Below are positions 7,396 to 35,735 of a stretch of 64,000 bases of DNA, one piece after another. Each line of letters opens with the position of its first letter. Within the stretch, counting starts at the first letter, position 1. Source of the stretch: Candidatus Hodarchaeota archaeon (GTDB lineage: Archaea; Asgardarchaeota; Lokiarchaeia; Sigyniarchaeales; SOKP01); contig JBHLKM010000002.1 in the NCBI GenBank assembly GCA_048886685.1, forward strand, positions 231,532 to 295,531, read 5' to 3'. The notes under the pieces were generated by a model, which worked only from the letters and a program-made list of their open reading frames with translations, was not told where the DNA came from and made no database searches. The translations under genes and the position numbers were made by a program.

Positions 7396-7680
7396 TCACA
7401 AATCTCTTTCTTCTTGTCATTTTCTAAAACCCAATAATAGAAAATCCTCAGTTTGGATAAAAATGTTTTAATGTTATGATTCCTTTGGAAAAAATTGCCT
7501 ATCTCTATAAACAGAAAGAATTAAAAATATTGAAAATGAATAAATTTTAAAAAAAAACATTTAATATTGATCTTGACAAAAAGATCTATATTGCAACTTA
7601 AAAATCATTCAATAAACATCTAACAGTTTCAAAAACATACAGTTTTGTATAAAAATTAAGAGGTGGATGTGTAAAAGTAG

Positions 7681-9624
7681 ATGAATAATAAAGAAAATCA
7701 TCGGATTGGATACTATGCTTGTCAATGAGGTGTAAATATAAGAACTAAGGTAGATTGCGATGAATTAACTAATTATGTTAAGAGTCTTGGAGATGAAATT
7801 ATAATTTCGAAGAAAAACCCATTTCTATGAACTGATAATGCTCAAAATGAAATTATAGAGGACATCAAAGAAAAGAATTTAAATAGAATTGTAGCGTCCG
7901 CTTGAACTCCGCGTACACATGAGGTGATTTATAGAGGTACTATTGCTAAAACGGATTTAAATCCTTATTATTTTCAAATGGTAAATGTTCGGGAACATTG
8001 TTCTTGGTGTACAGATACTAAAGAAGAAGCTACAGAAAAGGCAAAAGTTTTAGTAAAAAGTGGCATTGAAAGAGCCAAGCGATTGGAACCTGTTCCTATT
8101 AAAACTGTTCCCGTCACTAAAGCCACTTTAGTTGTTGGAGGTGGGATAGGAGGTATGAATGCAGCTCTAGATTTAGCGAACCAAGGTATTAAAGTTTACT
8201 TAGTCGATATTAAAACAACAATCGGAGGAAGAATGGCTCAATTGGACAGAACCTTTCCAACAGACGACTGTGCGATATGAATCTGCGGTCCAAAAATGCT
8301 TGAAGTTAATAGAAATGAGAATATAGAATTATTAACATATTCTGAAGTAAAAAAAATTGAAGGATACGTTGGTAATTATAAGGTAACTATTGAGAAGAAA
8401 CCACGATACACAACTGATGAATGTAATGGTTGTGGTGCTTGCGCTGAAGTCTGTCCAGTTTATACAACGAATTATTTTGATGAGCATCTAGGTGCACGAA
8501 GAGCAATAGATATTCCATTTGGTCAGGCAGTCCCGTTTCTATATGATATTGATCGAAATGCATGTGTTGAGTGTTTTTCATGTGTAGACGCTTGTGAATT
8601 GGATGCTATTGATTTTAGCCAGGAACCTACAGAACTTAATGTTGAGGTTGGTACAATCATTATAGCGACTGGTTGGGATATACATGAACCTTTTGGCGAA
8701 TACGGATATGGAGAATTCGAAAATGTGATTACTCAAGCTCAACTAGAACGAATTTTAGCTCCAAACGGACCACTTGAAGGCCACGTACATCGAATTTCGG
8801 ATAATAAGAAACCTAAGGAAATTGTTTTCATTCAATGTGTCGGTAGTAGAGAAGAGGATAGGACTTACTGCAGCGGAGTGTGTTGCATGCTTGCTTTAAA
8901 GAATGGACGATTGCTTTTAGAAGAATTTCCTGATGCAAACATTACAATCTGTTATATTGACATAAGAACTCCTGAAAAAGGATTTGAAGAATACTATGAA
9001 CGAGCTAAAGATGCTGGTATTAGATTGATACGAGGGAAAGTAGGTGAAATTTCTGAAGATCCAGAAACAAAGAACGTGAAAGTTCGAGTATATTCAACAT
9101 TAACAGATAAAATTGTAAAAATTGATGCTGATTTAGTTGTGTTATCCACAGCAGCAATCCCTTCAAAAGGTACTCAACAGATTGTAGAACTTTTAAATCT
9201 TGATACTAATACTTATGGCTTTCTAACAGAATCACATTTCGGATTAATGCCCCAAGAAACTAAGTCAAAAGGCATTTTTATAGCTGGATTTGCTCAAGGA
9301 CCGAAAAATATTTCTTATTCCGTTTCTCAAGCTAGAGCCGCTGCTAGTAAAGTAGCGGAATTAACATCACCTGGAGAAATAGATATTGAACTAATTACTG
9401 CTGAAGTTGATAGCGATTTTTGTATCTCCTGTCGACGATGCGAAAAAGAATGCCCTAAAAATGCCATCAAGATTGAAGAAGACATCGGAGCGTTCATTGA
9501 TGAGATAAATTGCGATGGATGCGGTATCTGTGCTACATGCTGTCCTACTCAGGCAATTGATATAAGGTATTATCGAGATCATCAATTATTTGCAGAAATT
9601 GATGGAATTTTAGGAGGTGGTTAA
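7681..9624 (+). CDS. hdrA: Selenocysteine-containing heterodisulfide reductase subunit A (647 aa, 4 Sec)
   Basis: One frame from ATG 7681 to TAA 9624 with in-frame TGA at 7726 (ACQ*GVNI), 7828 (FL*TD), 7903 (SA*TPRTHE) and 8278 (DDCAI*ICGPKM). These match CHCGINI, YSCSS, ASCTPRTHE and DCSLCILAPKM in the paralogs. The call joins ORF-track fragments 7924-8280 and 8296-9624. Confidence 0.93.
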
Positions 9625-9627
9625 ACA

Positions 9628-10101
9628 ATGGACAACTATAATTATAAAATTGTTGCTTTTGCTTGTTTAAAATGAGGTTATAGCGCAGCGGATTTAGCAG
9701 GTGTTTCACGAATGAAATACCCTTCTTCCATAAAAATAATTAAAGTTCGTTGTACAGGAAGAGTAGATTTGAAACATATACTTTATAGCATTAAATCTGG
9801 GGCGGATGGTGTAATGCTTGCTGGTTGAAGACCCAGTGAATGCCAGTATAAAAACGGTAATTTCACGGCTAATAAACATGTCGAATTCGCAAATAGAATT
9901 TTAGAATCTAGAGGCTTCGGAAATCAAAGAATTAACATGTATTGGTTAAGTGGAGCAGAGTCAGAAAAATTTGTAAGAAGTGTAGAAGATGCTTTAGAAA
10001 AGGTAAAATCTGTTGGACCAAGCCCAATTAATTTAGTAAAACAAGAAGCAGAAATAGAAGCTAAAGAAACAAAACAAGCTATAACTACCCCTGCAGAATG
10101 A
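9628..10101 (+). CDS. mvhD: Selenocysteine-containing hydrogenase delta subunit MvhD/VhuD (157 aa, 2 Sec)
   Basis: MDNYNYKIVAFACLK*GYSAADLAGVSRMKYP...VRCTGRVD...GADGVMLAG*RPSECQY. TGA 9673 and 9826 align to the Cys of CNWC and GCH in the paralogs. GGAGGTG RBS upstream. Entirely missing from the ORF track. Confidence 0.93.
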
Positions 10102-10146
10102 ATCTTATAAAAAACTTTAGTTATAGGATGACTTACCTTGCGAGGG
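10088..10146 (+). ncRNA. Eukaryote-type SECIS element (cis-acting mRNA structure)
   Basis: AUGA (10098-10101), 9-bp stem AUCUUAUAA/UUAUAGGAU, loop AAAACUUUAG, then GA (10130-10131); lower stem CCCUGCAG/UUGCG-A-GGG. Confidence 0.85.
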
Positions 10147-10217
10147 AAGGGGTCTTAAAATAGTATTCAATTAAAATAAAAAATTTGTTAAATGGAAAAA
10201 TCCAAAAGGATGAGAAT

Positions 10218-11714
10218 ATGGTTCAAATTTCAAATAATGTATCTTTCAATGGAATATCCCCAAAAAATCTAATGGATGCAACATATAAAGCCATTAAAAA
10301 TTTTCAAATTCGAGCGTTCTTCGAAGCTAAAGATGAAATTTTAGAAATAGGTAAATATTCTGAAGAAGAATTTTATAAAATATTAGATGCCATGATAGAT
10401 GCTGAAACAGAGCGTAAATTAGTACTGGAGTCTTTAAGGGGTAAGGAACCGTTATTTTTAGAGGAAATTGCAAAAATTCTAAAAGACTTTCCGGCAGAAC
10501 ATGTAATTCGTGATATAATTTACCTAAAAGAACAGGGATATATTGAAGAACATATTGAAATAAAAACTAAAATAGTTATCAAGAAAATAAAGGGAGAAGA
10601 AAAAGAAGTCGAGGAACAAGAATATTTCTACAGATATCAAGTAAAAGATATACCCGAGGATTTCATTGAACATTTTTTTGAACCTGTCTCTATTGTCTTC
10701 GATTCTGAAGTATGCTGTCAATGTGGTTGGTGTTCATCTATTTGTCCTGTAAATGCCATTACAGTCACAGCAGATACTTTAGAGATCGATGATGAGACTT
10801 GTATGAAATGTGGGATCTGTTATTCTGTTTGCCCGAGATCATTTTCAATTGAACAAGCGGGTAAAAGCATAAATAAGCTTGATAAATCTTTAAAATTCTC
10901 AGAAAAAATTAATGGTTATATTAATACCTATTCTGCCTCCACCACTAAAAATGAAATTAAAAAAGTTCGACAAGATGGGGGAATTGTTACTTCTTTACTT
11001 GAATACTTACTCAAGAATAAATTAGTTGATGCAATTATAGCTGTAAAACATTCAAAGGACCTATGGAAACCAGAGCCAGTAATAGTAGAAGATGTTAAAG
11101 ATTTATACAAAACAAGTGGTACTAAATACGCTAATGCCTCAACTTTAAATATCATTGATGAAACGAAAAAGTACGAAAACATAGCAGTCGTAGGAGTTCC
11201 TTGTATGATGAATGCATTAAAAAAAGGGTATTTATTTCCAAGCGGACAACCTTTTTTCAAAAACATTAGCTATAGAATAGGGCTTTTCTGCATGGAATCT
11301 TTTCCCTATGAAGGAGTGCTTAAATTAATTAAAGATCAATTTGATAAAGATTTTAATAAAGTTACTAAAATGGATATAAGTGGGGGTAAATTTATTATAT
11401 ATTTAGATTCGGGTGAGGATTTAAGAGTACCCTTAAACGATGTTAAATCCTATGCACGCCATAATTGTCATTTTTGTGAGGATTTGACTGCCGATTATGC
11501 TGATATTTCTGTAGGATCGATTGGGTCTCCTAGTGGTTGGTCTACAGTAATTACGCGAAATGAAAAAGGTGATAAAATCTATAAAGACGCAATTAAAGCA
11601 GGATTAATTGAATCTAAAAGCTTAAAGGAGGTAAAACCAGGACAACCCTTATTAGAAAGGATTGCTGGTACAAAAAGAAAAAATTGTAAACCCATTAAAT
11701 TGGGACAAGAATAA
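10218..11714 (+). CDS. FrhB-family F420-binding subunit with N-terminal winged-HTH-like domain and 2x[4Fe-4S]
   Basis: CCQCGWCSSICP, CMKCGICYSVCP, QDGGIVT, SGTKY, VGVPC, IGLFCMESF, CHFCEDLTADYADISVGSIGS. ATG 10218 is preferred to TTG 10185. Confidence 0.85.
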   Translation: MVQISNNVSFNGISPKNLMDATYKAIKNFQIRAFFEAKDEILEIGKYSEEEFYKILDAMIDAETERKLVLESLRGKEPLFLEEIAKILKDFPAEHVIRDIIYLKEQGYIEEHIEIKTKIVIKKIKGEEKEVEEQEYFYRYQVKDIPEDFIEHFFEPVSIVFDSEVCCQCGWCSSICPVNAITVTADTLEIDDETCMKCGICYSVCPRSFSIEQAGKSINKLDKSLKFSEKINGYINTYSASTTKNEIKKVRQDGGIVTSLLEYLLKNKLVDAIIAVKHSKDLWKPEPVIVEDVKDLYKTSGTKYANASTLNIIDETKKYENIAVVGVPCMMNALKKGYLFPSGQPFFKNISYRIGLFCMESFPYEGVLKLIKDQFDKDFNKVTKMDISGGKFIIYLDSGEDLRVPLNDVKSYARHNCHFCEDLTADYADISVGSIGSPSGWSTVITRNEKGDKIYKDAIKAGLIESKSLKEVKPGQPLLERIAGTKRKNCKPIKLGQE

Positions 11715-11732
11715 TAATAACAAAGAATTATT

Positions 11733-12833
11733 ATGAGTGTAAAATCTTTTCAAAATTTAATAAAAGAAGTTCATGAGAAAGGAATTTGTCAAGAATGCGG
11801 AGGTTGCGTAAGTTTTTGTAGTTCGGTTGATTATAATGTTATAGGATTTAAAGAACCTTACTCACCTCCAGAATATATTAATAAAGATGCGTGTCTTGAA
11901 TGTGGTATTTGTTATTATCTATGTCCTCAAACTCACATATTAGACGATGAACTTAATAAAACTTATAAATTTATAGATTTTAAATCAATGCCACTTGGTT
12001 ATTTCGAAGACATATATTCTTGCCAATCCACTGATCCTGATTTTCTAAAATATGGAACTGATGGTGGAGTAGTGAATTCAATAATTAATTATATGTTAGA
12101 AAAGAAATTAATTGATGGAGCAATAGTTGCTAAAATTCAGGGTCCTTTTTCAAAAGAAGCTATGTTTGCTGGTGATAAAAAAGATTTAATTAAAGGTTCT
12201 GGGACAAAACTTGAAATATCGACACAGTTAGATGAGATACAGAATTTTTGTACGTATACTCGCTCCATCCCAGAATTAAACCGTTACAAATTTAAAAAAT
12301 TAGCAATAGTAGGGACGCCCTGTCAAATTTATACCATCAGGTGTATGCAAAATTTAGGGGTTACTCCTTCAGAATATATAGAAATATGTTTAGGATTATT
12401 TTGTTATCATAATTTCCTTTTTGATAAAGCTCAAATAGAAAAATTTGAAAAAGACTTTGATGTAAAATTTGAAGATATCACAAAAATAAACATTAAGGAA
12501 GATCTTATTTTAAAAATTGGCACAGATGGGAGAGTAGTACATATTCCCTTCGATAAAATAGTAGATTATGTACGTCCCGCTTGCTTTAGTTGTGCTGATT
12601 TCACCAATGTGTATTCAGACATTTCTTTTGGAGGACTTGGATCTCCAGATAAGTATACTACAGTAATTCCCCGTACTGAAAAAGGACGTAAATTATTTCA
12701 TAAAGTTCTGGATGATCAACTTATCAAAAAATTAGTACTTGATGCTCCTGAAAAAAGTAAAATGAAAGAACGAATAACAAAATTCTCTCATTCGAAAATG
12801 GAGAGGGAACTAAGTTTTGTAAAAAATTTATAG
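11733..12833 (+). CDS. FrhB-family F420 hydrogenase/dehydrogenase beta subunit
   Basis: CQECGGCVSFC, CLECGICYYLCP, TDGGVV, VGTPCQ, LGLFC, CFSCADFTNVYSDISFGGLGS. Confidence 0.85.
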   Translation: MSVKSFQNLIKEVHEKGICQECGGCVSFCSSVDYNVIGFKEPYSPPEYINKDACLECGICYYLCPQTHILDDELNKTYKFIDFKSMPLGYFEDIYSCQSTDPDFLKYGTDGGVVNSIINYMLEKKLIDGAIVAKIQGPFSKEAMFAGDKKDLIKGSGTKLEISTQLDEIQNFCTYTRSIPELNRYKFKKLAIVGTPCQIYTIRCMQNLGVTPSEYIEICLGLFCYHNFLFDKAQIEKFEKDFDVKFEDITKINIKEDLILKIGTDGRVVHIPFDKIVDYVRPACFSCADFTNVYSDISFGGLGSPDKYTTVIPRTEKGRKLFHKVLDDQLIKKLVLDAPEKSKMKERITKFSHSKMERELSFVKNL

Positions 12834-12840
12834 TAAGGGT

Positions 12841-14097
12841 GTGAGATATCTGACCGAGTTGAAACAACCCAGTAAAAGTGATCAAGAAACTGATGAAATT
12901 CAAGTTTTTTTAGATAAAATATATGAAACTGATTTAAGACATTTATTGAAAAAATGTTATCAATGCGCACGATGCTCAGGTGTATGTCAAATTAGTAAGG
13001 TTCAGAAATTTACACCTAGTAGGATCATCCAAATGATTTTGGAGGGATTTGAAGACGAAATAATTGATAATGGAGTATTATGGGAATGTTTGACCTGTAA
13101 TAGTTGTCTCCAAGACTGTCCTAAAAATATAAATTTTGCAGATATTGCTCGGATTCTAAGATATAAAATGAGAAATAAGGGTATTCATAACCTTGAGAGA
13201 GCGGTTGCTCATAAAGGAATTTATCCTACAATGGGTGAATTGATGAGTCAAGATTATATTAATATCAATCGTCCTTTAGATTGGATCCCTAAAGGTTGTA
13301 AGATTGCAGATAAAGGTGAAATCTTATATTACGTTGGATGTTTGCCATTTTTCGATTATGATTTTCAGAATCTCAAGCCTATCTCATCAAGTACTTTAAA
13401 AACTATATGTAAAATTGAAAATGAACCAATTGTCGTACTTAAAGAAGAGACTTGTTGTGGACATGATTTATATTGGGGGCAAGGAAAATTTGAAGTTTTT
13501 ATTGAGTTAGCTAAGAAAAATCGAGAAAAATTTGAAAAAGCAGGCATATCAACAATAATTACTGCTTGTGCGGAATGCTACAGAACATTCAAGGTTGATT
13601 ATGCGAATTTATTTGATGATTTCAATAAAAGGTTTGATGTTCAACATATTATTGAATATGTATATGATAAGTGGAAACAAGGGAAGATCGATTTTAAAAA
13701 ACCTAATGAAAAATATAAGAAAACCACTTTTACGTTTCACGATCCCTGTAGATTAAGTAGATTTTTACCAACAGAAAACAACCTGGTAAAGAATTTAAGA
13801 GAAATTTTTAATTATCTACAGAATTTGGGGTATAATTTTAAAGAAATGAAACATAATCAAGAAAATTCCCTATGCTGCGGAGTTAGTTCTTGGTTAAATT
13901 GTAATGAGCGCTCTAAAGCATTGCGATACACCCGAATCTTAGAGGCAAAAGAGGTTGCTACTCAAGTATATACATCTTGTCCTAAATGTAACGTTCATTT
14001 GAATTGTATTAAAAAAGATTATGAGGATATTTCTTCGGTAGAAATTTCAGATCTTTCAGAATTTCTCGCAGATATAATAAAAATTGTAAAAAGTTAG
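12841..14097 (+). CDS. HdrD/GlpC-like Fe-S oxidoreductase (4Fe-4S dicluster plus two CCG domains)
   Basis: CYQCARCSGVC, CLTCNSCLQDCP, ETCCG, TACAEC, FHDPCRLSR, LCCG, TSCPKC. Confidence 0.85.
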   Translation: MRYLTELKQPSKSDQETDEIQVFLDKIYETDLRHLLKKCYQCARCSGVCQISKVQKFTPSRIIQMILEGFEDEIIDNGVLWECLTCNSCLQDCPKNINFADIARILRYKMRNKGIHNLERAVAHKGIYPTMGELMSQDYININRPLDWIPKGCKIADKGEILYYVGCLPFFDYDFQNLKPISSSTLKTICKIENEPIVVLKEETCCGHDLYWGQGKFEVFIELAKKNREKFEKAGISTIITACAECYRTFKVDYANLFDDFNKRFDVQHIIEYVYDKWKQGKIDFKKPNEKYKKTTFTFHDPCRLSRFLPTENNLVKNLREIFNYLQNLGYNFKEMKHNQENSLCCGVSSWLNCNERSKALRYTRILEAKEVATQVYTSCPKCNVHLNCIKKDYEDISSVEISDLSEFLADIIKIVKS

Positions 14098-14120: not shown

Positions 14121-17100
14121 ATGGAAGGATCTGTGTTAGTAATTGGAGGAGGTATTGCAGGGATCCAAGCTTCTTTAGATTTAACGGAGATGGGATTTAA
14201 AGTTTATCTAGTAGAAAAAACTCCTTCTATTGGAGGTAGAATGGCTCAACTCGATAAAACATTTCCTACTTTAGATTGTAGTTTATGCATATTGGCACCT
14301 AAAATGGTTGAAGTTTTCAGAAATCCTAATATCGAACTAATGACTTATCATGAAGTTAAAGAGGTTACTGGTAAAGCTGGAGATTTTAAGGTTACTGTTC
14401 TTAAGAGACCTCGTTTTGTTGATGAGACAAAATGCAAAGGATGTGGGGATTGTACCACTAGATGCCCAAAGATCGAAGCCCCAAATATTTTTGACATGAA
14501 TCTGGGAAAAAGAAAATCAATATACATCCCATTTCCTCAAGCAGTTCCACCAGTTTATTTGATTGATCCTGATATGTGTTTAAAATTGACGAGGGATGTA
14601 TGTGGTGTCTGTGAAAAAGTTTGTGAAGCAAAAGCTATAGATTTCACACAAAAAACTCAAGAAATTCAAATAAGTGTTGGAGCGATAGTAGTTGCTACTG
14701 GATTTGATATGGCTAGAGATGGTTTATCATCAAGATGGGGCATTGATTATGATAATGTAGTGACTGCATTAGAGTATGAAAGAATTCTATGTGCTTCTGG
14801 ACCATTTGGGGGGCATGTTTTACGCCCGAGTGATAAGGAAGAGCCAGAAAAGATAGCATTTATTCAATGTGCTGGATCAAGAGACTTGCATGAAAGAATT
14901 CCCTATTGTTCCAGCGTATGTTGTATGTATACGAGTAAAGAAGCCATAATCACTAAGGAACACTCTGATCAGTCACAATGTTTTGTTTTTAGACATGATA
15001 TTAGAGCCTATGGGAAAAATTTCTATGAATTTACCCAGAGAGCCCAAAATGAATATGGTGTGAATTATTTTCACACTAAAATTAGTAAGATTAAAGAAGA
15101 TCCTGAGAATAATGATCTGATTATACACTATGAAGATTTACAATCAGGTTTACTTAATAATTTTCGAGCAAATTTAGTCGTCTTGGCAACACCCTTGGTC
15201 CCTTCTAAGGGAACTGAAGAATTAGCAAAGATTTTAGATATCGAATTAGATGACTATAACTTTTTTAAGGAGAAATCACATTTTACTAAATCGAGATCCT
15301 CGAAAAAAGGTATTTTTTTAGCAGGATTTTGCCAAGGACCTATGGATATACCTGAAACTGTGGCTGATGCCAGTGGAGTGGCTTCCCAAGTAGCAGTTCT
15401 ACTTAGTTCCGTTAAATTTACTGAGACCAAAGAAAAAATAATAGAAGTGCCAGAAAAAGAGGTAAAAATAACAGATGACCCGAGAATTGGGGTACTAATT
15501 TGTCATTGTGGAATTAACATAGGAAAATATATCGATATTCCAAAAGTTATTGAATATATAAAGAATTTGCCTAATGTGGTTTTTTGTGAAGATAATTTGT
15601 ATTCTTGCAGTTCCGATTCTCAAGAAAGAATTAAGGAAGTAATAAACGAATTTAATTTAAATAGGTTTGTTGTAGCATCGTGTACTCCACGAACTCATGA
15701 ATCCTTATTCCAAGAGACCTGTCAAGAAGCAGGATTGAATAAATACTTGTTTCAAATGGCTAACATTAGGGACCAGTGTTCTTGGGTTCATATGGAACAA
15801 CCAGAAGAAGCTACGCAAAAAGCAAAAGATCTAATTGAAATGGCTGTTGCTAAATCCAGATTATTTAAACCCCAAGAAGAACAGACATTATCCATGACTC
15901 CCAAAGCATTAATTATTGGTGGGGGTATATCTGGAATGACTGCCGCGTTAAATATTGCTAATCAAGGATTTAATGTCTACCTTATAGAAAAAGAGAACAG
16001 GTTAGGGGGATTATTAAATGATTTATATCTCTTATATCCCACTCAAGAAGATTCTTCAACATTTTTAAAGAGGATAATAGAAGATACTACCAAAAATAAA
16101 AACATCCAGATATGTTTAGAATCAAAAGTAAAAGATGTTAAAGGATATATAGGTAATTATGATATCTCCATTGTTAACTCCAAAAAAGAAATTACCGAAT
16201 TTAAAGTGGGTGTTATTATTGTTGCTACTGGGGGAAAAGAATTAAAACCTATTGGATATCCGCAATATAATGATAAAAATCAAAATGTAATAACTCAATT
16301 AGAACTGGAACGGAAATTAAAAGCTGAAGATTTATCATGGCTTGACAAGATCAAACGCATTACGACTATCTTGTGTGTTAGAGCTAGAGAAGTAAAAGGA
16401 ATTACATATTGTTCAAATGTGTGTTGTGCAATATCTATTAAAAACTTAAATATTCTTAAGGAATTAAAGCCAGATCTTGAAATAATTGTTCTTTACAGAG
16501 ATTTTCAAATGGCCAAAAAAGAATTTGAAGAATATTTCTTTGATAGAAGGAAGGATGCAATTCTTCTGAGATATAATTTAAATAAACCACCAGATATTAA
16601 AAAAATTGGTAATAAACCCGAGAAATATGGAATAAAGGTATTCGATACTAATTTACAAGATGATATCAATTTTGAAACAGATATGATTATCTTATCTCCT
16701 CCTATGAGTCCTCCAGAAAATTCAGAAGAATTAGCAAAAATGCTTAAAGTACCTTTAGACCATCAAGGCTTTTTCTTAGAAGCTCATGCTAAATTAAGAC
16801 CTGTAGATTTCGCAACAGATGGAGTATTTTTATGTGGATGTGCCCATTGGCCAAAACATATTCAAGAATCAATTACTCAGGCAAATGGAGCAGCAGGAAG
16901 AGCAAGCAGATTTTTGAGTTCAGAAGATATTATTGCATCGGGTTTAGTATCAGAGGTGGATGATGAATTATGTATCGGATGTGGTGTTTGCGTGAAACTT
17001 TGTCCTTATAATGCAATATCGAAGAATGAACAAGAGGTAGCGGTTGTTAACAAACTCATGTGCAAAGGATGTGGAGTTTGTGGTGCTAGTTGTCCTGAAA

Positions 17101-17171
17101 ATGCGATAACTGTACATCATTTTACAGACGACCAAATCTTATCAGAAATTATTGTATACGGAGGAGATTAA
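14121..17171 (+). CDS. hdrA: Large (two-module) HdrA-like FAD/Fe-S protein
   Basis: VIGGGIAG, GGRMAQLDKTFPT, YCSSVCC, RIGVLICHCG, second IIGGGISG, C-terminal ferredoxin. Confidence 0.88.
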   Translation: MEGSVLVIGGGIAGIQASLDLTEMGFKVYLVEKTPSIGGRMAQLDKTFPTLDCSLCILAPKMVEVFRNPNIELMTYHEVKEVTGKAGDFKVTVLKRPRFVDETKCKGCGDCTTRCPKIEAPNIFDMNLGKRKSIYIPFPQAVPPVYLIDPDMCLKLTRDVCGVCEKVCEAKAIDFTQKTQEIQISVGAIVVATGFDMARDGLSSRWGIDYDNVVTALEYERILCASGPFGGHVLRPSDKEEPEKIAFIQCAGSRDLHERIPYCSSVCCMYTSKEAIITKEHSDQSQCFVFRHDIRAYGKNFYEFTQRAQNEYGVNYFHTKISKIKEDPENNDLIIHYEDLQSGLLNNFRANLVVLATPLVPSKGTEELAKILDIELDDYNFFKEKSHFTKSRSSKKGIFLAGFCQGPMDIPETVADASGVASQVAVLLSSVKFTETKEKIIEVPEKEVKITDDPRIGVLICHCGINIGKYIDIPKVIEYIKNLPNVVFCEDNLYSCSSDSQERIKEVINEFNLNRFVVASCTPRTHESLFQETCQEAGLNKYLFQMANIRDQCSWVHMEQPEEATQKAKDLIEMAVAKSRLFKPQEEQTLSMTPKALIIGGGISGMTAALNIANQGFNVYLIEKENRLGGLLNDLYLLYPTQEDSSTFLKRIIEDTTKNKNIQICLESKVKDVKGYIGNYDISIVNSKKEITEFKVGVIIVATGGKELKPIGYPQYNDKNQNVITQLELERKLKAEDLSWLDKIKRITTILCVRAREVKGITYCSNVCCAISIKNLNILKELKPDLEIIVLYRDFQMAKKEFEEYFFDRRKDAILLRYNLNKPPDIKKIGNKPEKYGIKVFDTNLQDDINFETDMIILSPPMSPPENSEELAKMLKVPLDHQGFFLEAHAKLRPVDFATDGVFLCGCAHWPKHIQESITQANGAAGRASRFLSSEDIIASGLVSEVDDELCIGCGVCVKLCPYNAISKNEQEVAVVNKLMCKGCGVCGASCPENAITVHHFTDDQILSEIIVYGGD

Positions 17172-17175
17172 TTAT

Positions 17176-17949
17176 ATGAATTTCACCCCAAAAATTTTAG
17201 GATTTTTATGTAATTGGTGCTCTTATGCTGGAGCAGATCTTGCTGGGGTAAGTCGAATTCAATACTCTCCTAATATTAGGATAGTAAGGGTTATGTGCAG
17301 TGGAAGAGTTGATCCTATATTTATTGCTGAAGCACTCTCAAGAAATATTGATGGAGTACTTGTTTTAGGATGTCATCCTGGAGACTGCCATTATATCAGC
17401 GGTAATTATGAAGCAGAGATAAAAATGAAGATGCTAACTAAATTATTGAAAATAATTGGGTTTTCTGAACGTTTAAGGTTGGATTGGGTTTCTGCTGCTG
17501 AAGGAAATAGATTTGCTCAACTAGTAAATGAATTTACTGAGCATATTAAAAATTTGGGTCCAAATCTGGTTAGAGACAAAAAATTAAAAAATAAATTAAT
17601 ATCCGATTTTGATGCTATAAAATCTGTATTGAAAGATTCAAGACTTAGAATTCTAGTTGGTAGAGAAAGAAAAATCATTAATGAAGGTAATGCATATAAC
17701 GAGAAAATCCCATTAGAGAAATTTGAACAAATTCTTGACGATGCCATTCAGAATGAATTTGAACGTCATAAAATATTACAAATAATTTCTGAAAATGGTA
17801 AATCCGTACCAGAAATCTCTAAAGAAGTTCAACTTCCCCCAAATAATGTGCTAAATCATATTGTTTCCTTAAGACAAAGAGGGTTGGTCGATTTACACGA
17901 GCTGAATGAAGAAATACCCCTATTTATATCAATTAACGAGGGCAAATAA
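17176..17949 (+). CDS. mvhD: MvhD (Cys form) fused to a C-terminal winged-HTH-like domain
   Basis: FLCNWCSYAGADLAG, VMCSGRVD, GCHPGDCHY plus about 120 extra residues; ATG 17176 follows GGAGGAG. Confidence 0.85.
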   Translation: MNFTPKILGFLCNWCSYAGADLAGVSRIQYSPNIRIVRVMCSGRVDPIFIAEALSRNIDGVLVLGCHPGDCHYISGNYEAEIKMKMLTKLLKIIGFSERLRLDWVSAAEGNRFAQLVNEFTEHIKNLGPNLVRDKKLKNKLISDFDAIKSVLKDSRLRILVGRERKIINEGNAYNEKIPLEKFEQILDDAIQNEFERHKILQIISENGKSVPEISKEVQLPPNNVLNHIVSLRQRGLVDLHELNEEIPLFISINEGK

Positions 17950-20900
17950 TGGAAAAAGTTGGTGCAGTACTGGTTGTTGGTGGAGGCATAGCAGGTATTC
18001 AAGCATCCATTGATTTGGCAGATTCAGGTTATAAAGTATATATAGTAGAATCGTCTATGAGTATCGGTGGGGTTATGTCACAGCTAGATAAAACCTTTCC
18101 TACTAATGATTGTGCTATATGTATCCTTGCCCCAAAATTAGTGCTTACGGGTCGTCATGAAAATATAGAAATAATAATAAATTCATCTATAGAAAAAATC
18201 GAAGGAGAACCAGGAAATTTTAATGTGGATATTATCCAAAAATCGCTTTATTTAGATCAAAATAAATGTACTGGATGTGGTGTGTGTGCCCAAAAATGCC
18301 CCATTGAAGCTATTGATTTCTTCAATGAAGGATTTTCTAAAAAATCAGCAATATCTGTAAAATTTCCACAAGCAGTTCCATTAGTTTTCTCAATAGATAA
18401 AGAAAAATGTATAGGATGTGAAGTTTGTAAAGAAATTTGTAAAGCAAATGCCATAGATTATGAGCTTAGAGATAAGAAAATAAATCTCAAGGTAGGAGCA
18501 GTAATTTTAGCAATTGGTTTTGATGAATTTGAACCTTCTCCTTTAATAAATATTGGCTACGATAAATACTTGAATGTCATAACGAGTATTGAATTTGAAC
18601 GTACGTTAAGTGCTAGCGGACCTCACTCAGGTTTAATTCTCCGTCCTTCTGATGGAATTATTCCAAAAAAAATAGCTTTCTTACAATGCATCGGTTCAAG
18701 GGATAAAAGTATTAATGCTGAATATTGTTCTTCAGTATGTTGTATGTATACCACAAAAGAAGCAGTAATTGCAAAAGAACATGTGAATTTTATAGAACCT
18801 ACGATCTTTGCAATGGATATAAGAGCATATGGTAAAGATTTTGATAAATATATTGAACGGGCAAAGAATGAACATGGCATACGATATATTAGAAGAAGGA
18901 TTTCAACTATTAGTGAAATTCCAGATTCAAAAGATTTAAAGATTCGATATGAAACAGATGATGGGAAAGTCATTGAAGAAATTTTTAATTTAGTTGTTCT
19001 TGCTGTAGGAGCACAATCTAATAAGAGTTCTATAGAATTAGCTCAAAAGTTAAATATAGAGTTAAATGAATATGGTTTCTGCAAAACAAAAAGTTTTAAT
19101 CCGGTAGAAACATCAAAACCTGGAATCTATGTATGTGGAATGTTTGCCTCACCTAAGGATATCCCAGAAACTGTCATCGAAGCTAGTGCTGCTGCTGGAT
19201 GCGTTAATGTTTTGCTAACAGAAGTAAGAAATACATTAATCTCAAAGAAAGAACTCCCAGAAGAAATTGATGTGAGTGAACAGCCACCAAAAATAGGGGT
19301 CTTTATATGTCATTGTGGAATTAATATTGGGGGGGTTGTTAACGTTCCTGAGATTGTCGAATATGTAAAAACATTACCTAATGTAGTATATGCTGAACAT
19401 AATCTATACACTTGTTCCGCTGATACTCAAACGAATATTAAAGAAAAAATAACAGAAAATCAGCTTAATAGAGTAATAGTTGCTTCATGTACTCCAAGAA
19501 CGCACGAACCCTTATTTCAAGCAACAATACAGGAGGTAGGATTGAATAAGTATCTTTTTGAGATGGTGAATATCAGAGATCAATGCTCTTGGGTTCATAT
19601 GCATGAAGCTGAAAATGCAACATCAAAAGCAAAAGATTTACTAAGAATGTCAGTAGCTAAAGCTGCACAGTTAATTCCATTACAAGAACAAGAAATTGAT
19701 GTAATCGACAAAAGTTTAGTCATTGGTGGGGGTGTATCTGGAATGATTTCAGCTTTAAATTTGGCTTCTCAAGGTTTTGAAGTATTCTTAATTGAAAAAG
19801 AAGATTCTCTAGGAGGATTTGTCAAGAATATTTTCCAAACCCTTGAAAATGACGATATTCAAGAATTTATTATCAACCTAATACAAGAGGTTGAAAATAA
19901 TCAGTTAATTCAAGTATTTAAAAAAGCTCAAATTAATTCAATTTCAGGATACATCGGCAATTTCACCACAAATATATCTTATGGGAAAAATAATAAAATT
20001 ATTGATCTTGAACACGGAATAATTATTGTGGCTACAGGCGCAAAAGAATACCAACCAAATGAATACAATTATGGACAAGATCAGAGAATTATATCTCAAG
20101 TTGAATTTGAAAAAACCCTTTTTACTACAAATGAAGTAAAAAAATTGAATTTAATCACAATGATACAATGTATTGGTTCTAGAAATGAAGATCATCCCTA
20201 TTGTAGCAGAATATGTTGTTCTGAAGCCATAAAGAATGCATTAAAAGCAAAAGAAATCAACCCAAATCTTGAAATAATTATTTTATATCGTGATATTCGT
20301 ACATATGGATTCAAGGAGAAATATTACAATCTGGCTAGAGAAAAAGGAGTCATTTTCATTAGATTTGATGAAAATAAACCCCCAGAATTAAAAATAAAAA
20401 ATGAAAAGTTAAATCTTTTAGTTGAAAGACCCGATATAGGTAAATTGGAAATAAATCCAGAATTAATCGTTTTAAGTACAGGACTCGTAGCACCTATAAA
20501 AGAAAATGAAGATCTAGCAAAAATGCTAAAAGTTCCTCTTAATGAGGATAAATTCTTTCTCGAAGCTCATGTAAAATTAAGACCAATTGACTTTGCAACA
20601 GATGGTATCTTTTTATGTGGTTGTGCACACTCACCTAAAAATATTAGGGAATCTATTGCTCAAGCTAATGGAGCCGCTGCCCAAGCAGTTAAAGTTTTGG
20701 GTGCTAAAAAAATTGTAACATCCGGTCTTGTTGCTACTGTAATAGAAGATAATTGTATTGGATGTGGAAATTGTGTTGAAGTTTGCCAATTTAATGCAAT
20801 AGAATTAGTAGAACAACAAAAAGAGTTCGAAGATTGCACAATTACAATAAAAAAATCTCATGTTAATTCAGCATTATGTAAAGGTTGCGGGACATGTGGA

Positions 20901-20984
20901 GCTCAATGCCCAAATTCTACAATTATTATAAAACATTTTGGATTCGAGCAAATAAGTGCCATGATTTCTGCTCTTTTAGTCTAA
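17949..20984 (+). CDS. hdrA: Large (two-module) HdrA-like FAD/Fe-S protein
   Basis: VVGGGIAG, LDKTFPTNDCAIC, YCSSVCC, IGVFICHCG, YCSRICC, C-terminal ferredoxin. Confidence 0.88.
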   Translation: MEKVGAVLVVGGGIAGIQASIDLADSGYKVYIVESSMSIGGVMSQLDKTFPTNDCAICILAPKLVLTGRHENIEIIINSSIEKIEGEPGNFNVDIIQKSLYLDQNKCTGCGVCAQKCPIEAIDFFNEGFSKKSAISVKFPQAVPLVFSIDKEKCIGCEVCKEICKANAIDYELRDKKINLKVGAVILAIGFDEFEPSPLINIGYDKYLNVITSIEFERTLSASGPHSGLILRPSDGIIPKKIAFLQCIGSRDKSINAEYCSSVCCMYTTKEAVIAKEHVNFIEPTIFAMDIRAYGKDFDKYIERAKNEHGIRYIRRRISTISEIPDSKDLKIRYETDDGKVIEEIFNLVVLAVGAQSNKSSIELAQKLNIELNEYGFCKTKSFNPVETSKPGIYVCGMFASPKDIPETVIEASAAAGCVNVLLTEVRNTLISKKELPEEIDVSEQPPKIGVFICHCGINIGGVVNVPEIVEYVKTLPNVVYAEHNLYTCSADTQTNIKEKITENQLNRVIVASCTPRTHEPLFQATIQEVGLNKYLFEMVNIRDQCSWVHMHEAENATSKAKDLLRMSVAKAAQLIPLQEQEIDVIDKSLVIGGGVSGMISALNLASQGFEVFLIEKEDSLGGFVKNIFQTLENDDIQEFIINLIQEVENNQLIQVFKKAQINSISGYIGNFTTNISYGKNNKIIDLEHGIIIVATGAKEYQPNEYNYGQDQRIISQVEFEKTLFTTNEVKKLNLITMIQCIGSRNEDHPYCSRICCSEAIKNALKAKEINPNLEIIILYRDIRTYGFKEKYYNLAREKGVIFIRFDENKPPELKIKNEKLNLLVERPDIGKLEINPELIVLSTGLVAPIKENEDLAKMLKVPLNEDKFFLEAHVKLRPIDFATDGIFLCGCAHSPKNIRESIAQANGAAAQAVKVLGAKKIVTSGLVATVIEDNCIGCGNCVEVCQFNAIELVEQQKEFEDCTITIKKSHVNSALCKGCGTCGAQCPNSTIIIKHFGFEQISAMISALLV

Positions 20985-26329: not shown

Positions 26330-29300
26330 ATGGAAGGTTCTGTATTAGTTATTGGAGGAGGGATTGCTGGAATACAAACTTCTTTAGATTTAACTGAATT
26401 GGGTTTTAAAGTATATTTAGTGGAAAAAACTCCTTCTATTGGAGGGAGAATGGCTCAACTTGATAAAACCTTTCCTACTAACGATTGTAGTCTATGCATT
26501 CTTGCTCCTAAGATGGTAGAAGTATTCAGAAATCCTAATATTGAGTTAATGACATATCATGAAGTCCAAAAGGTCACTGGAAAACCTGGAAATTTTATTG
26601 TCTCAGTATTAAAGAAGCCTCGTTATGTTGATGAGACTAAATGTAAAGGTTGTGGGGATTGTGCTTCCAAATGCCCGAAGATCGAAACGCCTAATATCTT
26701 TGATATGAACTTAGGTAAGAGAAAATCAGTTTATATTCCATTTCCTCAAGCTGTTCCCCCTGTTTATATAATCGATCCTGATTTGTGTTTATTTTTAAAC
26801 AAAGGAGTTTGCGGTGTTTGTAAAAAAACATGTGAAGCAGATGCAATAGATTTTGAACAGAAGTCATTAGAAATTGAATTAAATGTTGGAGCCATTGTTG
26901 TGGCGACTGGTTATGATATACTTGGTGAGGAGTTATCTTCAAGATGGGGTTATAATTATAAGAATGTAGTCAATGCTTTAGAATACGAAAGAATGTTATC
27001 TGCTTCAGGCCCTTTTGGAGGGCATATTTTACGTCCGAGCGATGAGAAAGAGCCAGAAAAAATAGCATTCATTCAATGTGCTGGCTCAAGAGACCTACAT
27101 GAAGGAGTTCCCTATTGTTCCAGCGTATGTTGTATGTATACGAGTAAAGAAGCCATAATCACTAAGGAGCACTCTGACCATTCCCAATGCTTTGTTTTTA
27201 GACATGATATTAGAGCATTTGGAAAGAATTTTTATGAATTCACTCAAAGGGCTCAAGAAGAATATGGTGTAAAATATTTTCAGACCAAAGTGAATAGAAT
27301 CTTAGAAGATCCAGAAACAAATGATCTAATTATTCATTATGAAGACCTAAAAACTGGAGAATTTAAGGACTTTAAAGCAAATTTGGTAGTATTAGCTTCA
27401 CCATTAGTCCCCTCAAATGGAACCAGAAAATTAGCTGAAATTTTAGATATTGAATTAGATGATTATAGCTTCTTCAAAGAAAAAACTTACTTCAACAAAT
27501 CTTTATCTTCGAGAGAAGGTATCTTCTTAGCTGGATTTTGTCAAGGCCCAATGGATATACCAGAGACTGTCGCTGATGCTAGTGGTGTAGCTTCGCAGAT
27601 CGCAACTTTACTAAATCCCTCCAAATTTACAGAAATTGAAGAAAAGATATTTGAGATTCCCGAGAAAGAAGTAAAGACTACAGATGATCGGAGAATTGGT
27701 GTACTTATTTGCCATTGTGGAATTAATATTGGAAAATATATCAATATTCCTGAAGTCATCGAACATATAAAGACATTGCCTAATGTAGTCTTTTGTGAAG
27801 ATAATCTTTATTCTTGTAGTTCTGATTCTCAACAACGAATTAAGGAAGTAATTGCGGAATATAACTTAAATAGATTTATTGTAGCATCTTGTACACCGCG
27901 AACCCATGAATCTCTATTTCAAGAAACATGTCAAGAAGCAGGGCTAAATAAATATCTCTTTGAGATGGTTAATATTCGAGATCAGTGTTCTTGGGTTCAT
28001 ATGACAGAAAAAGAAAAAGCTACCGAAAAGGCAAAGGATCTAATAAGAATGGGAGTTGCAAAGTCAAGGTTATTAAGACCTCAATCAGAGGAAAAACTGC
28101 AAATCACTCAAACTGCTTTGGTAATTGGTGGCGGTGTATCTGGGATGAGTGCCGCCTTAAATATTGCTAACCAAGGATTCATAGTTTATCTTGTAGAAAA
28201 AGAGAAATTTCTAGGTGGAAATCTCAAAAACTTAAATGTATTATATCCAACTCAAGAAGATGCTTCAATCTTACTAAATGAAATTATAGAAAAGGTTATG
28301 AAAAATAGGAATATTCAACTTCTCCTAAGCTCTCAATTGAAAGATGTTAATGGTTATATTGGAAATTACAACGTTACTGTCGTCGATTCAGAAAATGAAA
28401 GCCACGATTTAAAAATTGGCACTATAATAGTTGCTACTGGAGGACAAGAACTAAAACCTAAAGAAGTTTTTCAATATAAACTTAAGAACCATAATGTAAT
28501 TACGCAATTAGAATTAGAACAGAAATTGAAAAGTGAAGATGTGTCTTGGCTTGATAAGATTAATCGTATTACATCAATGTTATGTGTCAACGCAAGGCAA
28601 AAAGAAGGAATTACATACTGTTCTAATATATGTTGTGGAAGCGCTATTAAGAACATTAATATTTTAAAAGAATTGAAAAATGACCTCGAATTAGTAGTTC
28701 TTTATCGAGATCTCCAAATGGCAAAAAAACAATTTGAGGAATATTATCGCGATCGGAGAAAAGATGCGATATTCTTAAGATATGATTTAGATAAACCCCC
28801 ATTCATTAGTACGAAGAATGGCAAATCGGAAAAGTACGAAATTAAAGTATTTGATACTAATTTACAAGATTACCTCACATTTGAAACAGATTTAATAGTA
28901 TTATCAACTCCTATGATCCCAGCTAGTAATTTAGAAGAACTAGCAAAAATGCTCAAAGTTCCTCTAGATAAAAATGGTTTTTTCTTAGAGGCTCATGTCA
29001 AATTAAGACCATTAGATTTTGCCACAGATGGGATTTTCTTATGCGGATGTGCTCAGTGGCCAAAAAATATTCAAGATTCTATATCACAAGCAAATGGTGC
29101 TGCAGGAAGAGCAAGTAGATTCTTAAGTGCAAAAGAAATTACAACTTCTGGTTTAGTAGCAGAAGTAGATCAAGATATGTGCATTGGATGTGGAACCTGT
29201 GAAGATGTTTGTGCTTATAATGCAGTAGAACTAACCGAAATAATAAAAGAATTTGAAGATGTGAGTTTAGTCATAAAAAAATCTTCCATCAATCCAAATT

Positions 29301-29410
29301 TATGTAAAGGGTGTGGAACTTGTGCCGCAAATTGTCCAATTGGGGCAATTTCTGTAAAACACTACGACTTTGAGCAAATTAATGCTTTAATTAGGGCATT
29401 AGTAATTTAA
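26330..29410 (+). CDS. hdrA: Large (two-module) HdrA-like FAD/Fe-S protein
   Basis: Same architecture as 14121-17171 and highly similar to it. Confidence 0.88.
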   Translation: MEGSVLVIGGGIAGIQTSLDLTELGFKVYLVEKTPSIGGRMAQLDKTFPTNDCSLCILAPKMVEVFRNPNIELMTYHEVQKVTGKPGNFIVSVLKKPRYVDETKCKGCGDCASKCPKIETPNIFDMNLGKRKSVYIPFPQAVPPVYIIDPDLCLFLNKGVCGVCKKTCEADAIDFEQKSLEIELNVGAIVVATGYDILGEELSSRWGYNYKNVVNALEYERMLSASGPFGGHILRPSDEKEPEKIAFIQCAGSRDLHEGVPYCSSVCCMYTSKEAIITKEHSDHSQCFVFRHDIRAFGKNFYEFTQRAQEEYGVKYFQTKVNRILEDPETNDLIIHYEDLKTGEFKDFKANLVVLASPLVPSNGTRKLAEILDIELDDYSFFKEKTYFNKSLSSREGIFLAGFCQGPMDIPETVADASGVASQIATLLNPSKFTEIEEKIFEIPEKEVKTTDDRRIGVLICHCGINIGKYINIPEVIEHIKTLPNVVFCEDNLYSCSSDSQQRIKEVIAEYNLNRFIVASCTPRTHESLFQETCQEAGLNKYLFEMVNIRDQCSWVHMTEKEKATEKAKDLIRMGVAKSRLLRPQSEEKLQITQTALVIGGGVSGMSAALNIANQGFIVYLVEKEKFLGGNLKNLNVLYPTQEDASILLNEIIEKVMKNRNIQLLLSSQLKDVNGYIGNYNVTVVDSENESHDLKIGTIIVATGGQELKPKEVFQYKLKNHNVITQLELEQKLKSEDVSWLDKINRITSMLCVNARQKEGITYCSNICCGSAIKNINILKELKNDLELVVLYRDLQMAKKQFEEYYRDRRKDAIFLRYDLDKPPFISTKNGKSEKYEIKVFDTNLQDYLTFETDLIVLSTPMIPASNLEELAKMLKVPLDKNGFFLEAHVKLRPLDFATDGIFLCGCAQWPKNIQDSISQANGAAGRASRFLSAKEITTSGLVAEVDQDMCIGCGTCEDVCAYNAVELTEIIKEFEDVSLVIKKSSINPNLCKGCGTCAANCPIGAISVKHYDFEQINALIRALVI

Positions 29411-35717: not shown

Positions 35718-35735
35718 AAATGGTACATTATAAGT

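Follow-up and report, generated by a model that had tools for sequence, protein, structure and literature searches.

The window, a stretch of 64,000 nucleotides, is confirmed at the sequence level to carry an intact HdrA gene with four in-frame UGA codons for selenocysteine (Sec), from a Loki-type Asgard archaeon. Together with the adjoining vhuD, this gene very probably constitutes a bicistronic selenoprotein unit of the Promethearchaeota (Lokiarchaeia) in which six UGA codons (HdrA 16, 50, 75 and 200; VhuD 16 and 67) are read as Sec. The features of the unit and of its 3' neighbourhood are listed below with predicted Sec residues.

7681..9624, + strand: hdrA coding sequence, 647 codons with four Sec (UGA) and a TAA stop; Pfam Pyr_redox_2 and Fer4
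7726..7728, + strand: UGA, Sec16, in a C-x-U motif; aligns with Cys13 of 5ODC_A
7828..7830, + strand: UGA, Sec50; aligns with Cys46 of 5ODC_A; evolutionarily labile Sec/Cys site
7903..7905, + strand: UGA, Sec75, in A-U-T-P-R-T-H-E; aligns with Cys71 of 5ODC_A
8278..8280, + strand: UGA, Sec200, the canonical HdrA Sec in the C197-x-x-U200 pair; Cys197 of 5ODC_A, X in 9SFI_A
9628..10101, + strand: vhuD/mvhD (FlpD family), 157 codons with Sec16 and Sec67; Pfam PF02662, E 9.5e-44
9673..9675, + strand: UGA, VhuD Sec16, at the relay cysteine position near the [2Fe-2S] cluster (PMC13580544; analogy with BamF Sec19)
9826..9828, + strand: UGA, VhuD Sec67, in a G-U-x-x-x-x-C motif
10082..10160, + strand: lokiSECIS (Asgard type I eSECIS-like) directly 3' of vhuD, with an AUGA...GA core
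10185..14097, + strand: three same-strand genes 3' of the unit, possible partners, with Pfam hits
10185-11714 and 11733-12833, + strand: two FrhB/FdhB-family Fe-S flavoproteins (Pfam)
12841-14097, + strand: HdrD-like protein with Fer4 and two CCG domains (Pfam)

The hdrA gene and the conservation of its UGA codons

Translated with table 11, the hdrA frame (7681-9624, + strand, 647 codons) contains four internal stops and no frameshift. All internal stops are TGA (nt 7726, 7828, 7903 and 8278, i.e. codons 16, 50, 75 and 200), the terminal stop is TAA, and neither TAA nor TAG occurs inside the frame. A mechanical ORF listing splits the gene into pieces of 118 and 442 aa, and an exact look-up of both fragments in a protein collection gave no match. 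The complete product matches solved chains over its full length (9SFI_A, E 2.5e-202; 5ODC_A, 1.1e-193), and residues 5-645 can be aligned with 9SFI_A, 5ODC_A, 8RVU_a and 7BKB_A with no large gap, each TGA falling on a Cys. The four-domain architecture of HdrA is present, consisting of an N-terminal cluster domain, a thioredoxin-reductase-like FAD domain, an inserted ferredoxin and a C-terminal ferredoxin; Pfam detected two Fer4 dicluster regions along with Pyr_redox_2/FAD. The first-pass annotation had proposed a hidden but intact Sec-HdrA whose four in-frame UGA codons sit on conserved Cys, and the frame translation, the TAA stop and the ortholog alignment bear this out. The motifs it had compared in the window's four double HdrA-like proteins of ~1,000 aa were likewise recovered, CHC, YSC/YTC and ASCTPRT in an internal N-type domain and DCxxC in the N-terminal halves.

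The genome encodes eight full-length HdrA paralogs, five Sec-type and three Cys-type, which share 26 invariant Cys/Sec columns; four of these are Sec in the gene at 7681-9624. All Cys groups are present: four N-terminal residues, the CxxC pair, eight residues of the inserted ferredoxin, a C-x10-C-x3-CC group and eight residues of the C-terminal ferredoxin. The count of 26 equals four ligands for each of six clusters plus the CxxC pair. Within the N-terminal domain, invariant Cys are confined to positions 14, 16, 50 and 75. The codon-16 position is U in all five Sec-type paralogs, and the codon-75 position is Cys in the seven other full-length paralogs.

Conservation was assessed across the window gene and 79 orthologs drawn from Promethearchaeota MAGs, with per-site totals that differ (75, 76, 75 and 80). 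The four TGA sites lie on Cys columns only: TGA occupies codon 16 in 74/75 sequences (TGT in the remaining one), codon 50 in 55/76 (TGT/TGC in 21), codon 75 in 75/75 and codon 200 in 80/80. Among 16 same-genus orthologs, TGA is found in 16/16 at codons 16, 75 and 200 and in 14/16 at codon 50, the other two having TGT. The check on close relatives thus gave TGA at the same four Cys columns, a pattern shared by orthologs of 74-95% identity, and such placement is far beyond chance. The hdrA stops of the 78 complete genes are TAA (64) or TAG (14), never TGA. Synonymous differences far exceed nonsynonymous ones in the gene. Between codons 76 and 200, the orthologs differ by 759 synonymous and 133 nonsynonymous changes; purifying selection acts upstream of the last hdrA TGA (codon 200). 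In one ortholog a stray TGA stands in place of a Tyr codon, and sporadic TGAs occur in single genomes at other Cys ligand codons (298, 301 and 614).

In two runs of a single sediment-metagenome study, Logan contigs span the four TGA sites without mismatch, though these runs are probably the source samples and hence do not count as independent evidence for the TGAs. A search of public runs for the hdrA stretch listed no RNA run containing it; one run labelled metatranscriptomic held only a contig of a diverged relative.

Codon 50 has switched between Sec and Cys at least seven times on the tree of 74 orthologs, so that Sec at this position is not essential. Its lability lends some weight to a possible, though rather doubtful, alternative in which the UGAs are decoded as Sec, but the non-canonical sites (especially 50, perhaps 16 and 75) are a near-neutral by-product of an efficient shared SECIS and do not tune a cluster potential. 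The rare TGAs at codons 298, 301 and 614 point the same way, as does the fact that in three paralogs of the genome Cys alone serves for the same chemistry. Against it, every ortholog has TGA at codons 75 and 200, and 74 of 75 have it at codon 16, although one base change would give Cys, whereas the ordinary Cys codons of the orthologs alternate freely between TGT and TGC (e.g. 46 versus 32 at codon 614). The retention of TGA at 16, 75 and 200, set against these free flips, argues for selection keeping Sec at three sites.

vhuD, the SECIS element and the Sec machinery

The vhuD gene follows hdrA on the same strand after a spacer of 3 nt, and a two-Sec VhuD lies directly 3' of hdrA in all 15 orthologs with downstream sequence. 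In alignment, its U residues fall on the two X of VhuD from M. maripaludis (9SFI_K), and U16 matches Cys16 of MvhD (9SW2_D). HdrA's N-terminal domain gave no significant BLASTP match to VhuD, and no family was found for it in Pfam; a profile-profile comparison with VhuD reached a probability of only 33%, aligning U50 with VhuD C41 and U75 with VhuD U67. A possible homology between the two is a lead, not a result.

The SECIS element was delineated from a centroid fold, an alignment of 15 orthologs and a covariance model. It comprises the AUGA at 10098-10101, a 9-bp stem (10102-10110 with 10121-10129), the GA at 10130-10131, an A-rich apical loop of 10 nt (10111-10120) and a lower helix ACCCCU/AGGGGU. 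The vhuD stop, UGA at 10099-10101, falls within the AUGA of the core. In the ortholog alignment, 96% of the stem cells are paired, compared with 44-64% when the stem is slid. Compensatory changes within the orthologs alter two of the nine pairs on both sides, a modest covariation because the sequences are close relatives. The covariance model finds one site in the whole 64 kb, at 10082-10160 (96 bits). Single-sequence folding of 10080-10160 yields a z-score of only -0.78, as the AU-rich stem is not thermodynamically exceptional; the support for the element therefore comes from conservation and the covariance model and not from folding energy. An Rfam scan of 7400-10400 at E<=10 returned no SECIS family match, which says nothing against the element since the Rfam SECIS models do not cover the Loki type. 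Similar elements lie 3' of the Sec-type paralogs B, C and E and none lies 3' of the three Cys-type paralogs; that of paralog D has a bulged stem, was seen by eye and was missed by the model.

The first-pass annotation had made its reading depend on Sec machinery, and the components were all found in the genome: a tRNA-Sec, anticodon UCA (detected by aragorn and, at 63 bits, by Rfam), SepSecS (483 bits) ~200 nt from the tRNA-Sec, PSTK, two SelD genes with one TGA each, and EFSec, whose best PDB match is the archaeal SelB 4AC9 (5.5e-90). In the same genome, TGA terminates 128 of 1,013 long ORFs. A 509-aa ORF with one TGA at 34704-36233 was considered as a further selenoprotein and rejected, being an ADH gene (34704-35717) that ends in TGA and is followed by a separate GNAT gene.

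A genome-wide reassignment of TGA to a standard amino acid (e.g. Trp, Gly or Cys) would likewise produce interruptions that are all TGA and never TAA or TAG, but is highly improbable given the ORFs that end in TGA, including this ADH gene, the confinement of in-frame TGAs to Cys columns of known selenoprotein families, and the presence of tRNA-Sec (anticodon UCA), SepSecS, PSTK and EFSec. That hdrA is a decaying pseudogene or its TGAs are assembly or sequencing errors, so that at most the 442-aa C-terminal ORF is made, would fit the fragments from standard ORF calling and the ortholog with a stray TGA at a Tyr codon, yet this reading can be practically dismissed, being already contradicted by the same four TGA codons in tens of independently assembled MAGs and by the excess of synonymous changes upstream of codon 200, and disfavoured by the frame free of frameshifts, TAA and TAG, the agreeing contigs of other runs, and the dedicated SECIS and Sec machinery.

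For the bicistronic selenoprotein unit, we infer Sec insertion, co-transcription, polycistronic decoding by one SECIS, and partner proteins. The six recoded UGA codons would be decoded by the archaeal/eukaryotic-type machinery (tRNA-Sec, PSTK, SepSecS, SelD and EFSec) under the direction of the single kink-turn SECIS, which lies 0.27 to 2.37 kb 3' of these codons. The UGA in its core would double as the vhuD stop, and HdrA, ending in UAA, would not be read through. The unit is predicted to yield a complete HdrA that belongs to the flavin-based electron-bifurcating type. Its candidate partners, if FdhB/ElpB-type input modules are taken as a guide, are the FrhB-like and CCG proteins whose genes lie 3', and the position of these genes suggests a physical association of their products with HdrA-VhuD. 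With respect to an HdrBC association, the HdrD-like gene with Fer4 and two CCG domains lies 3.2 kb 3' on the same strand, and no separate hdrB or hdrC adjoins the unit. The organism is not a known methanogen.

Probable cluster ligands and the proposed role of selenium

All four Cys had been taken as established ligands of an N-terminal cluster. For U200 this does not hold: according to cryo-EM papers from 2026, Cys197 of 5ODC and Sec197 of M. maripaludis belong to a Cys-Cys or Cys-Sec pair located between cluster A3/HA3 and FAD, which either forms a selenylsulfide or holds a ligand of unknown identity (PMC13518236, PMC13580544). Only Chadwick et al. 2022 assign the U200 equivalent as a cluster ligand donated by the partner protomer. 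For U16, U50 and U75, Cys counting makes the ligand role a reasonable reading but does not establish it. Mariotti et al. 2016 took the contrary position that these Cys do not ligate a cluster (PMC4989117), which predates the six-cluster HdrA structures. As three of only four invariant Cys of the N-terminal domain, U16, U50 and U75 most likely ligate the [4Fe-4S] shuttle cluster HA3/A3. In the proposed mechanism, the Cys197/Sec200 pair and VhuD Sec16 would form a thiol/selenol relay linking the [2Fe-2S] cluster of VhuD with the bifurcating FAD and the N-terminal shuttle cluster.

We lean towards the view that the shuttle cluster, which would take the bifurcation's low-potential electron, is held by the selenolates of Sec16, Sec50 and Sec75 and the thiolate of Cys14, or, if the alternative assignment applies, by Sec50, Sec75 and Sec200'. 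It would represent a natural, mostly selenium-ligated Fe-S cluster, with Sec16 and Sec75 apparently kept by selection in more than 70 species. The 2016 paper explicitly refrained from proposing such a cluster (PMC4989117), as the cluster was then unknown, and in the later literature no paper was found that states a mostly selenium-ligated shuttle cluster.

Gene callers break the hdrA at 7681-9624, its four sister hdrA genes, the vhuD partners and the two selD at UGA; metabolic reconstructions of Loki-type Asgard archaea built on such gene calls consequently miss or truncate the main electron-bifurcating modules. The value as annotation is modest. Both multi-Sec HdrA and the use of one SECIS for six UGAs over 2.4 kb are already published. 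More worthwhile is the re-mapping of the Loki-specific Sec sites on post-2017 structures, which places them in the shuttle-cluster domain of the low-potential branch. With two N-domain Sec sites fixed by selection and a third flipping freely between Sec and Cys, the family may serve as a natural experiment on selenium ligation of an Fe-S cluster.

Comparison with known selenoprotein and bifurcating systems

The closest known system is the unit of Lokiarchaeota described by Mariotti et al. 2016 (Mol Biol Evol; PMC4989117), in which HdrA with up to four Sec and a tandem VhuD share one SECIS and the HdrA stop is never UGA; multi-Sec HdrA/VhuD genes were re-surveyed in 227 Asgard genomes (ISME J 2024, PMC11227280). 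The novelty implied in the first-pass annotation was thus pre-empted in 2016, and the hdrA described here is a missed annotation and not a discovery. Both units stem from the same lineage and have up to four Sec in HdrA on conserved Cys, always including the canonical site at ~200. In both, VhuD lies immediately 3' on the same strand with two Sec ~50 codons apart, HdrA stops at UAA or UAG and VhuD may stop at UGA. A single SECIS, with AUGA...GA as its core, a stem of 9 bp and an A-rich loop, follows VhuD and none follows HdrA. The SECIS loop has 10 nt in our case versus 11, and nothing essential differs; the four Sec positions are presumed to be those of the published four-Sec gene.

The methanococcal HdrA and VhuD (9SFI, M. 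maripaludis) belong to the same families over their full length (E 2.5e-202 and 5e-39), share Sec at the HdrA CxxU and at both VhuD sites, and are likewise encoded in the order hdrA, then vhuD. As the first-pass annotation had correctly stated (PMC4989117), methanococcal HdrA carries a single Sec, in contrast to the three additional ones in the N-terminal domain here. The methanococcal unit further differs in its archaeal SECIS, which is eukaryote-like in our case, and no Vhu hydrogenase genes adjoin the present unit. The Cys-type HdrA of HdrABC-MvhAGD (5ODC, 8RVU, 7BKB) has its domains in the same order and shares the full set of 26 conserved Cys positions, four of which are Sec here, and the neighbouring genes here appear to encode FrhB-like and HdrD-like partners instead of HdrBC/MvhAG. 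Lastly, BamE/BamF of class II benzoyl-CoA reductase (bioRxiv 10.64898/2026.04.10.717634) comprises an HdrA-type bifurcating module whose MvhD-like subunit BamF has Sec19 at the relay position corresponding to VhuD Sec16. The N-terminal-type cluster of the module swings until it lies ~3.5 A from the CxxC pair. This system is bacterial, differently fused and without Sec in the N-domain of its HdrA-like subunit, and hence is a functional analogue only.

Reading frame and conservation of the TGA codons

The gene hdrA at 7681-9624 (+) very probably encodes an HdrA with four selenocysteines (Sec, U). As the first-pass annotation had proposed, four in-frame TGAs are the sole interruptions of a 647-residue translation (table 11); the frame has a terminal TAA. 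The opposite strand is closed, and a mechanical ORF listing of the stretch returns only pieces of 118 and 442 aa. With TGA read as U, the product shows the Pfam signature of HdrA, a FAD/pyridine-nucleotide-disulfide oxidoreductase fold with two ferredoxin dicluster regions, and aligns end to end with the solved HdrA chains 9SFI_A (E 2.5e-202) and 5ODC_A (1.1e-193), and also with 8RVU and 7BKB. Residues Cys13, Cys46, Cys71 and Cys197 of 5ODC_A correspond to U16, U50, U75 and U200, and U200 also matches the X (Sec) in 9SFI.

In-frame TGA codons of hdrA and their occurrence in a wider set, made up of the window gene and 79 orthologs of 74-95% identity from MAGs of Promethearchaeota (Lokiarchaeia)
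nt 7726, +, codon 16: TGA in 74/75
nt 7828, +, codon 50: TGA in 55/76, Cys in the other 21
nt 7903, +, codon 75: TGA in 75/75
nt 8278, +, codon 200: TGA in 80/80

The main argument, drawn from sequence comparison, is conservation across species, which points to conserved, selected codons and not to damage. A search of 30 related genomes, including 17 same-genus species genomes, found orthologs in 15 of these 17 (80-92% identity), with four TGAs in 12, five in one and three in two. When the 16 same-genus genes were aligned by codon, TGA occupied codons 16, 75 and 200 in all 16 and codon 50 in 14, the remaining two having TGT (Cys). The TGA/Cys alignment to be looked for in Asgard relatives is present: orthologs keep TGA, and the alternatives at codon 50 are Cys. 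On a tree of 74 orthologs, Sec/Cys changes occurred at least seven times at position 50, once at 16 and never at 75 and 200. Of the three N-domain Sec sites, selection keeps two constant in more than 70 species, and the third is exchanged freely with Cys; ordinary Cys codons of the same genes interchange TGT and TGC freely. All 78 complete genes of the wider set stop at TAA or TAG. Additional TGAs at Cys298, Cys301 and Cys614 (the last in orthologs L038/L060) occur sporadically in single genomes, on Cys ligands of classical ferredoxin motifs, and a TGA at Tyr96 in one ortholog probably reflects an error or a defunct copy.

Codons 76-200 would stay untranslated if the TGAs were stops; here synonymous differences far exceed nonsynonymous ones (759 against 133, summed over 15 orthologs), a sign of purifying selection. 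Across all four sites the stretch is tiled without mismatch by Logan contigs, drawn from two runs of a single sediment study; as both runs probably represent the source samples, an assembly slip is excluded only weakly.

Selenocysteine machinery, vhuD and a probably shared SECIS

The Sec machinery sought in the genome (G000) was found in full.

G000:C1 221073-221165, -, tRNA-Sec (aragorn; Rfam 63 bits, threshold 47)
G000:C1 219573-220874, -, SepSecS (483 bits), about 200 nt from tRNA-Sec
G000:C1 about 225126-226544, +, EFSec, about 4 kb further on; best solved relative archaeal SelB 4AC9 (5.5e-90, full length)
G000:C13:56676-58803, +, two tandem selD/SPS genes with one in-frame TGA each

The first three cluster within 7 kb (219573-226340). 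PSTK is also encoded (best solved relative M. jannaschii PSTK, 5e-23), and the Sec-SelD duplication has been called unusual for Loki/Thor genomes (PMC11227280). Because TGA remains the stop codon of 128 out of 1,013 long ORFs, the recoding is local and the genetic code itself unchanged. On G000:C1, aragorn reports a 93-nt 'tRNA-???' at c[21205,21297] with a four-base anticodon (tcca), which may be an intron-containing tRNA misread.

A second selenoprotein gene and a SECIS element follow hdrA.

9628-10101, +, vhuD, FlpD/MvhD family (Pfam E 9.5e-44), starting 3 nt after the hdrA stop
10102-10110/10121-10129, 9-bp stem of the SECIS after vhuD, with AUGA, A-rich apical loop and GA

In vhuD, TGA codons 16 and 67 stand exactly where the M. 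maripaludis VhuD chain 9SFI_K has its two X, and in M. marburgensis MvhD the residue opposite U16 is Cys16. The third TGA, codon 158 (10099-10101), is the stop and lies within the AUGA of the SECIS. Across 15 orthologs the element shows 89% identity per column, an 11-nt loop in 14, and pairing in 96% of stem cells versus 44-64% with the partner strand slid; compensatory changes occur at the first and fourth pairs, and the predicted structure includes a lower helix, ACCCCU/AGGGGU. Run over all 64 kb of the window, a covariance model derived from these sequences hits 10082-10160 (96 bits) and nothing else; elsewhere in the genome it found one site just 3' of each of three other Sec-type hdrA loci, with double compensatory stem changes, and none at the three Cys-type hdrA loci or the selD loci. 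At the fifth Sec-type locus, a form with a bulge was recognised by eye. Rfam holds no family matching the element. In ortholog L042 (G010:C47), vhuD stops at a TAA that precedes the SECIS by 14 nt, and the 3' core is AA instead of GA; this AUGA_AA variant has been described in some Lokiarchaeia.

Placement of the selenocysteines

HdrA's N-terminal domain carries the [4Fe-4S] 'shuttle' cluster A3/HA3 (e.g. PMC13518236). Comparing eight paralogs with the solved chains leaves only four invariant Cys columns in this domain, 14, 16, 50 and 75; the 26 invariant Cys in total equal six clusters with four each plus the CxxC pair (here C197-x-x-U200). Published assignments of the A3/HA3 ligands name four N-domain residues, or three plus residue 197'; either would give about three selenolate ligands. 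The first-pass annotation took all four Cys positions as established ligands of the N-terminal cluster. Such a selenium-ligated cluster is plausible for U16, U50 and U75, and for U200 the claim is wrong or contested. A placement of the N-domain Sec sites at the low-potential branch's shuttle cluster is apparently not spelled out in the literature consulted. A weak profile-profile alignment (33% probability) pairs U50/U75 with C41/U67 of VhuD and hints, as a lead only, that the HdrA N-domain and VhuD may be homologous domains for a cluster, with corresponding Sec positions.

For position 200 the published accounts conflict between cluster ligand and relay. Chadwick et al. (2022) have the N-terminal cluster completed by Cys197 from the partner protomer, whereas the 2026 M. 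maripaludis cryo-EM study (PMC13518236) places Sec197 and a Cys in a feature between A3 and FAD, interpreted as a selenylsulfide relay. In a 2026 M. marburgensis paper (PMC13580544), Cys202/Cys205, equivalent to C197/U200, and MvhD Cys16 are 'additional' conserved cysteines binding an unknown ligand. A 2026 preprint on HdrA-type BamE/F (bioRxiv 10.64898/2026.04.10.717634) reports Sec at the MvhD relay position and, in one state, an N-terminal-type cluster swung to about 3.5 Å of the Cys pair, which plausibly brings both views into agreement. U200 and, in VhuD, U16 are best read as relay selenols, not fixed cluster ligands.

Paralogs, neighbourhood and the published Loki unit

The genome holds five Sec-type hdrA paralogs (4, 2, 4, 2 and 3 TGAs) and three without internal stop. 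Related genes are located as follows.

G000:C2:318050-319984, -, sister hdrA paralog L020, about 22 kb past the window end, four TGAs
14121-17171, 17949-20984, 26330-29410 and 30852-33959, +, four fused double HdrA-like proteins, about 1,000 aa
17152-17949, +, MvhD/FlpD domain followed by a fused DNA-binding domain of the ArsR/HTH_20 type (C-terminal); overlaps the double-HdrA gene before it, at that gene's end

The TGAs of L020 match positions 16 and 200 and, in the inserted ferredoxin domain, two Cys (A-positions 258, 295). No vhuD follows; its own AUGA...AA SECIS overlaps its stop, a UGA, which departs from the published rule that HdrA never ends in UGA. The double proteins contain a DCxxC pair and lack the N-type cluster domain in their N-terminal half; their C-terminal half has that domain (CHC, YSC, ASCTPRT, motifs correctly read in the first pass) without the CxxC pair. 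The same complementary pattern in fused HdrA of ANME and Moorella (Chadwick et al. 2022) suggests that they may be built-in heterodimers.

No hydrogenase genes adjoin hdrA-vhuD. Downstream on the same strand, Pfam identifies two FrhB/FdhB-family proteins, an HdrD-like CCG protein, two double HdrA-like proteins and more MvhD genes. FdhB/ElpB-type input modules dock on HdrA via an MvhD-like subunit (PMC12350162). By analogy and position, the FrhB-like proteins may deliver electrons to HdrA-VhuD, and the CCG protein may be its high-potential outlet.

Mariotti et al. (2016; PMC4989117) described Lokiarchaeota HdrA containing as many as four Sec, for which there are five possible positions, each on a conserved Cys, the canonical site near 200 never missing; a two-Sec VhuD lay directly downstream in every case, followed by one lokiSECIS (AUGA...GA, stem of 9 bp, loop of 11 nt), which was proposed to act on as many as six UGAs across about 2 kb. 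HdrA stopped at UAA or UAG only, and VhuD could stop at UGA. In a 2024 survey of the Asgard selenoproteome (PMC11227280), with 227 Asgard genomes that use Sec, no selenoproteins were more numerous than HdrA and FrhD/VhuD, which again share one SECIS. The novelty implied in the first pass is therefore not upheld: every defining feature of the published HdrA-VhuD unit was tested and found at the window locus, which is thus a further instance of that system.
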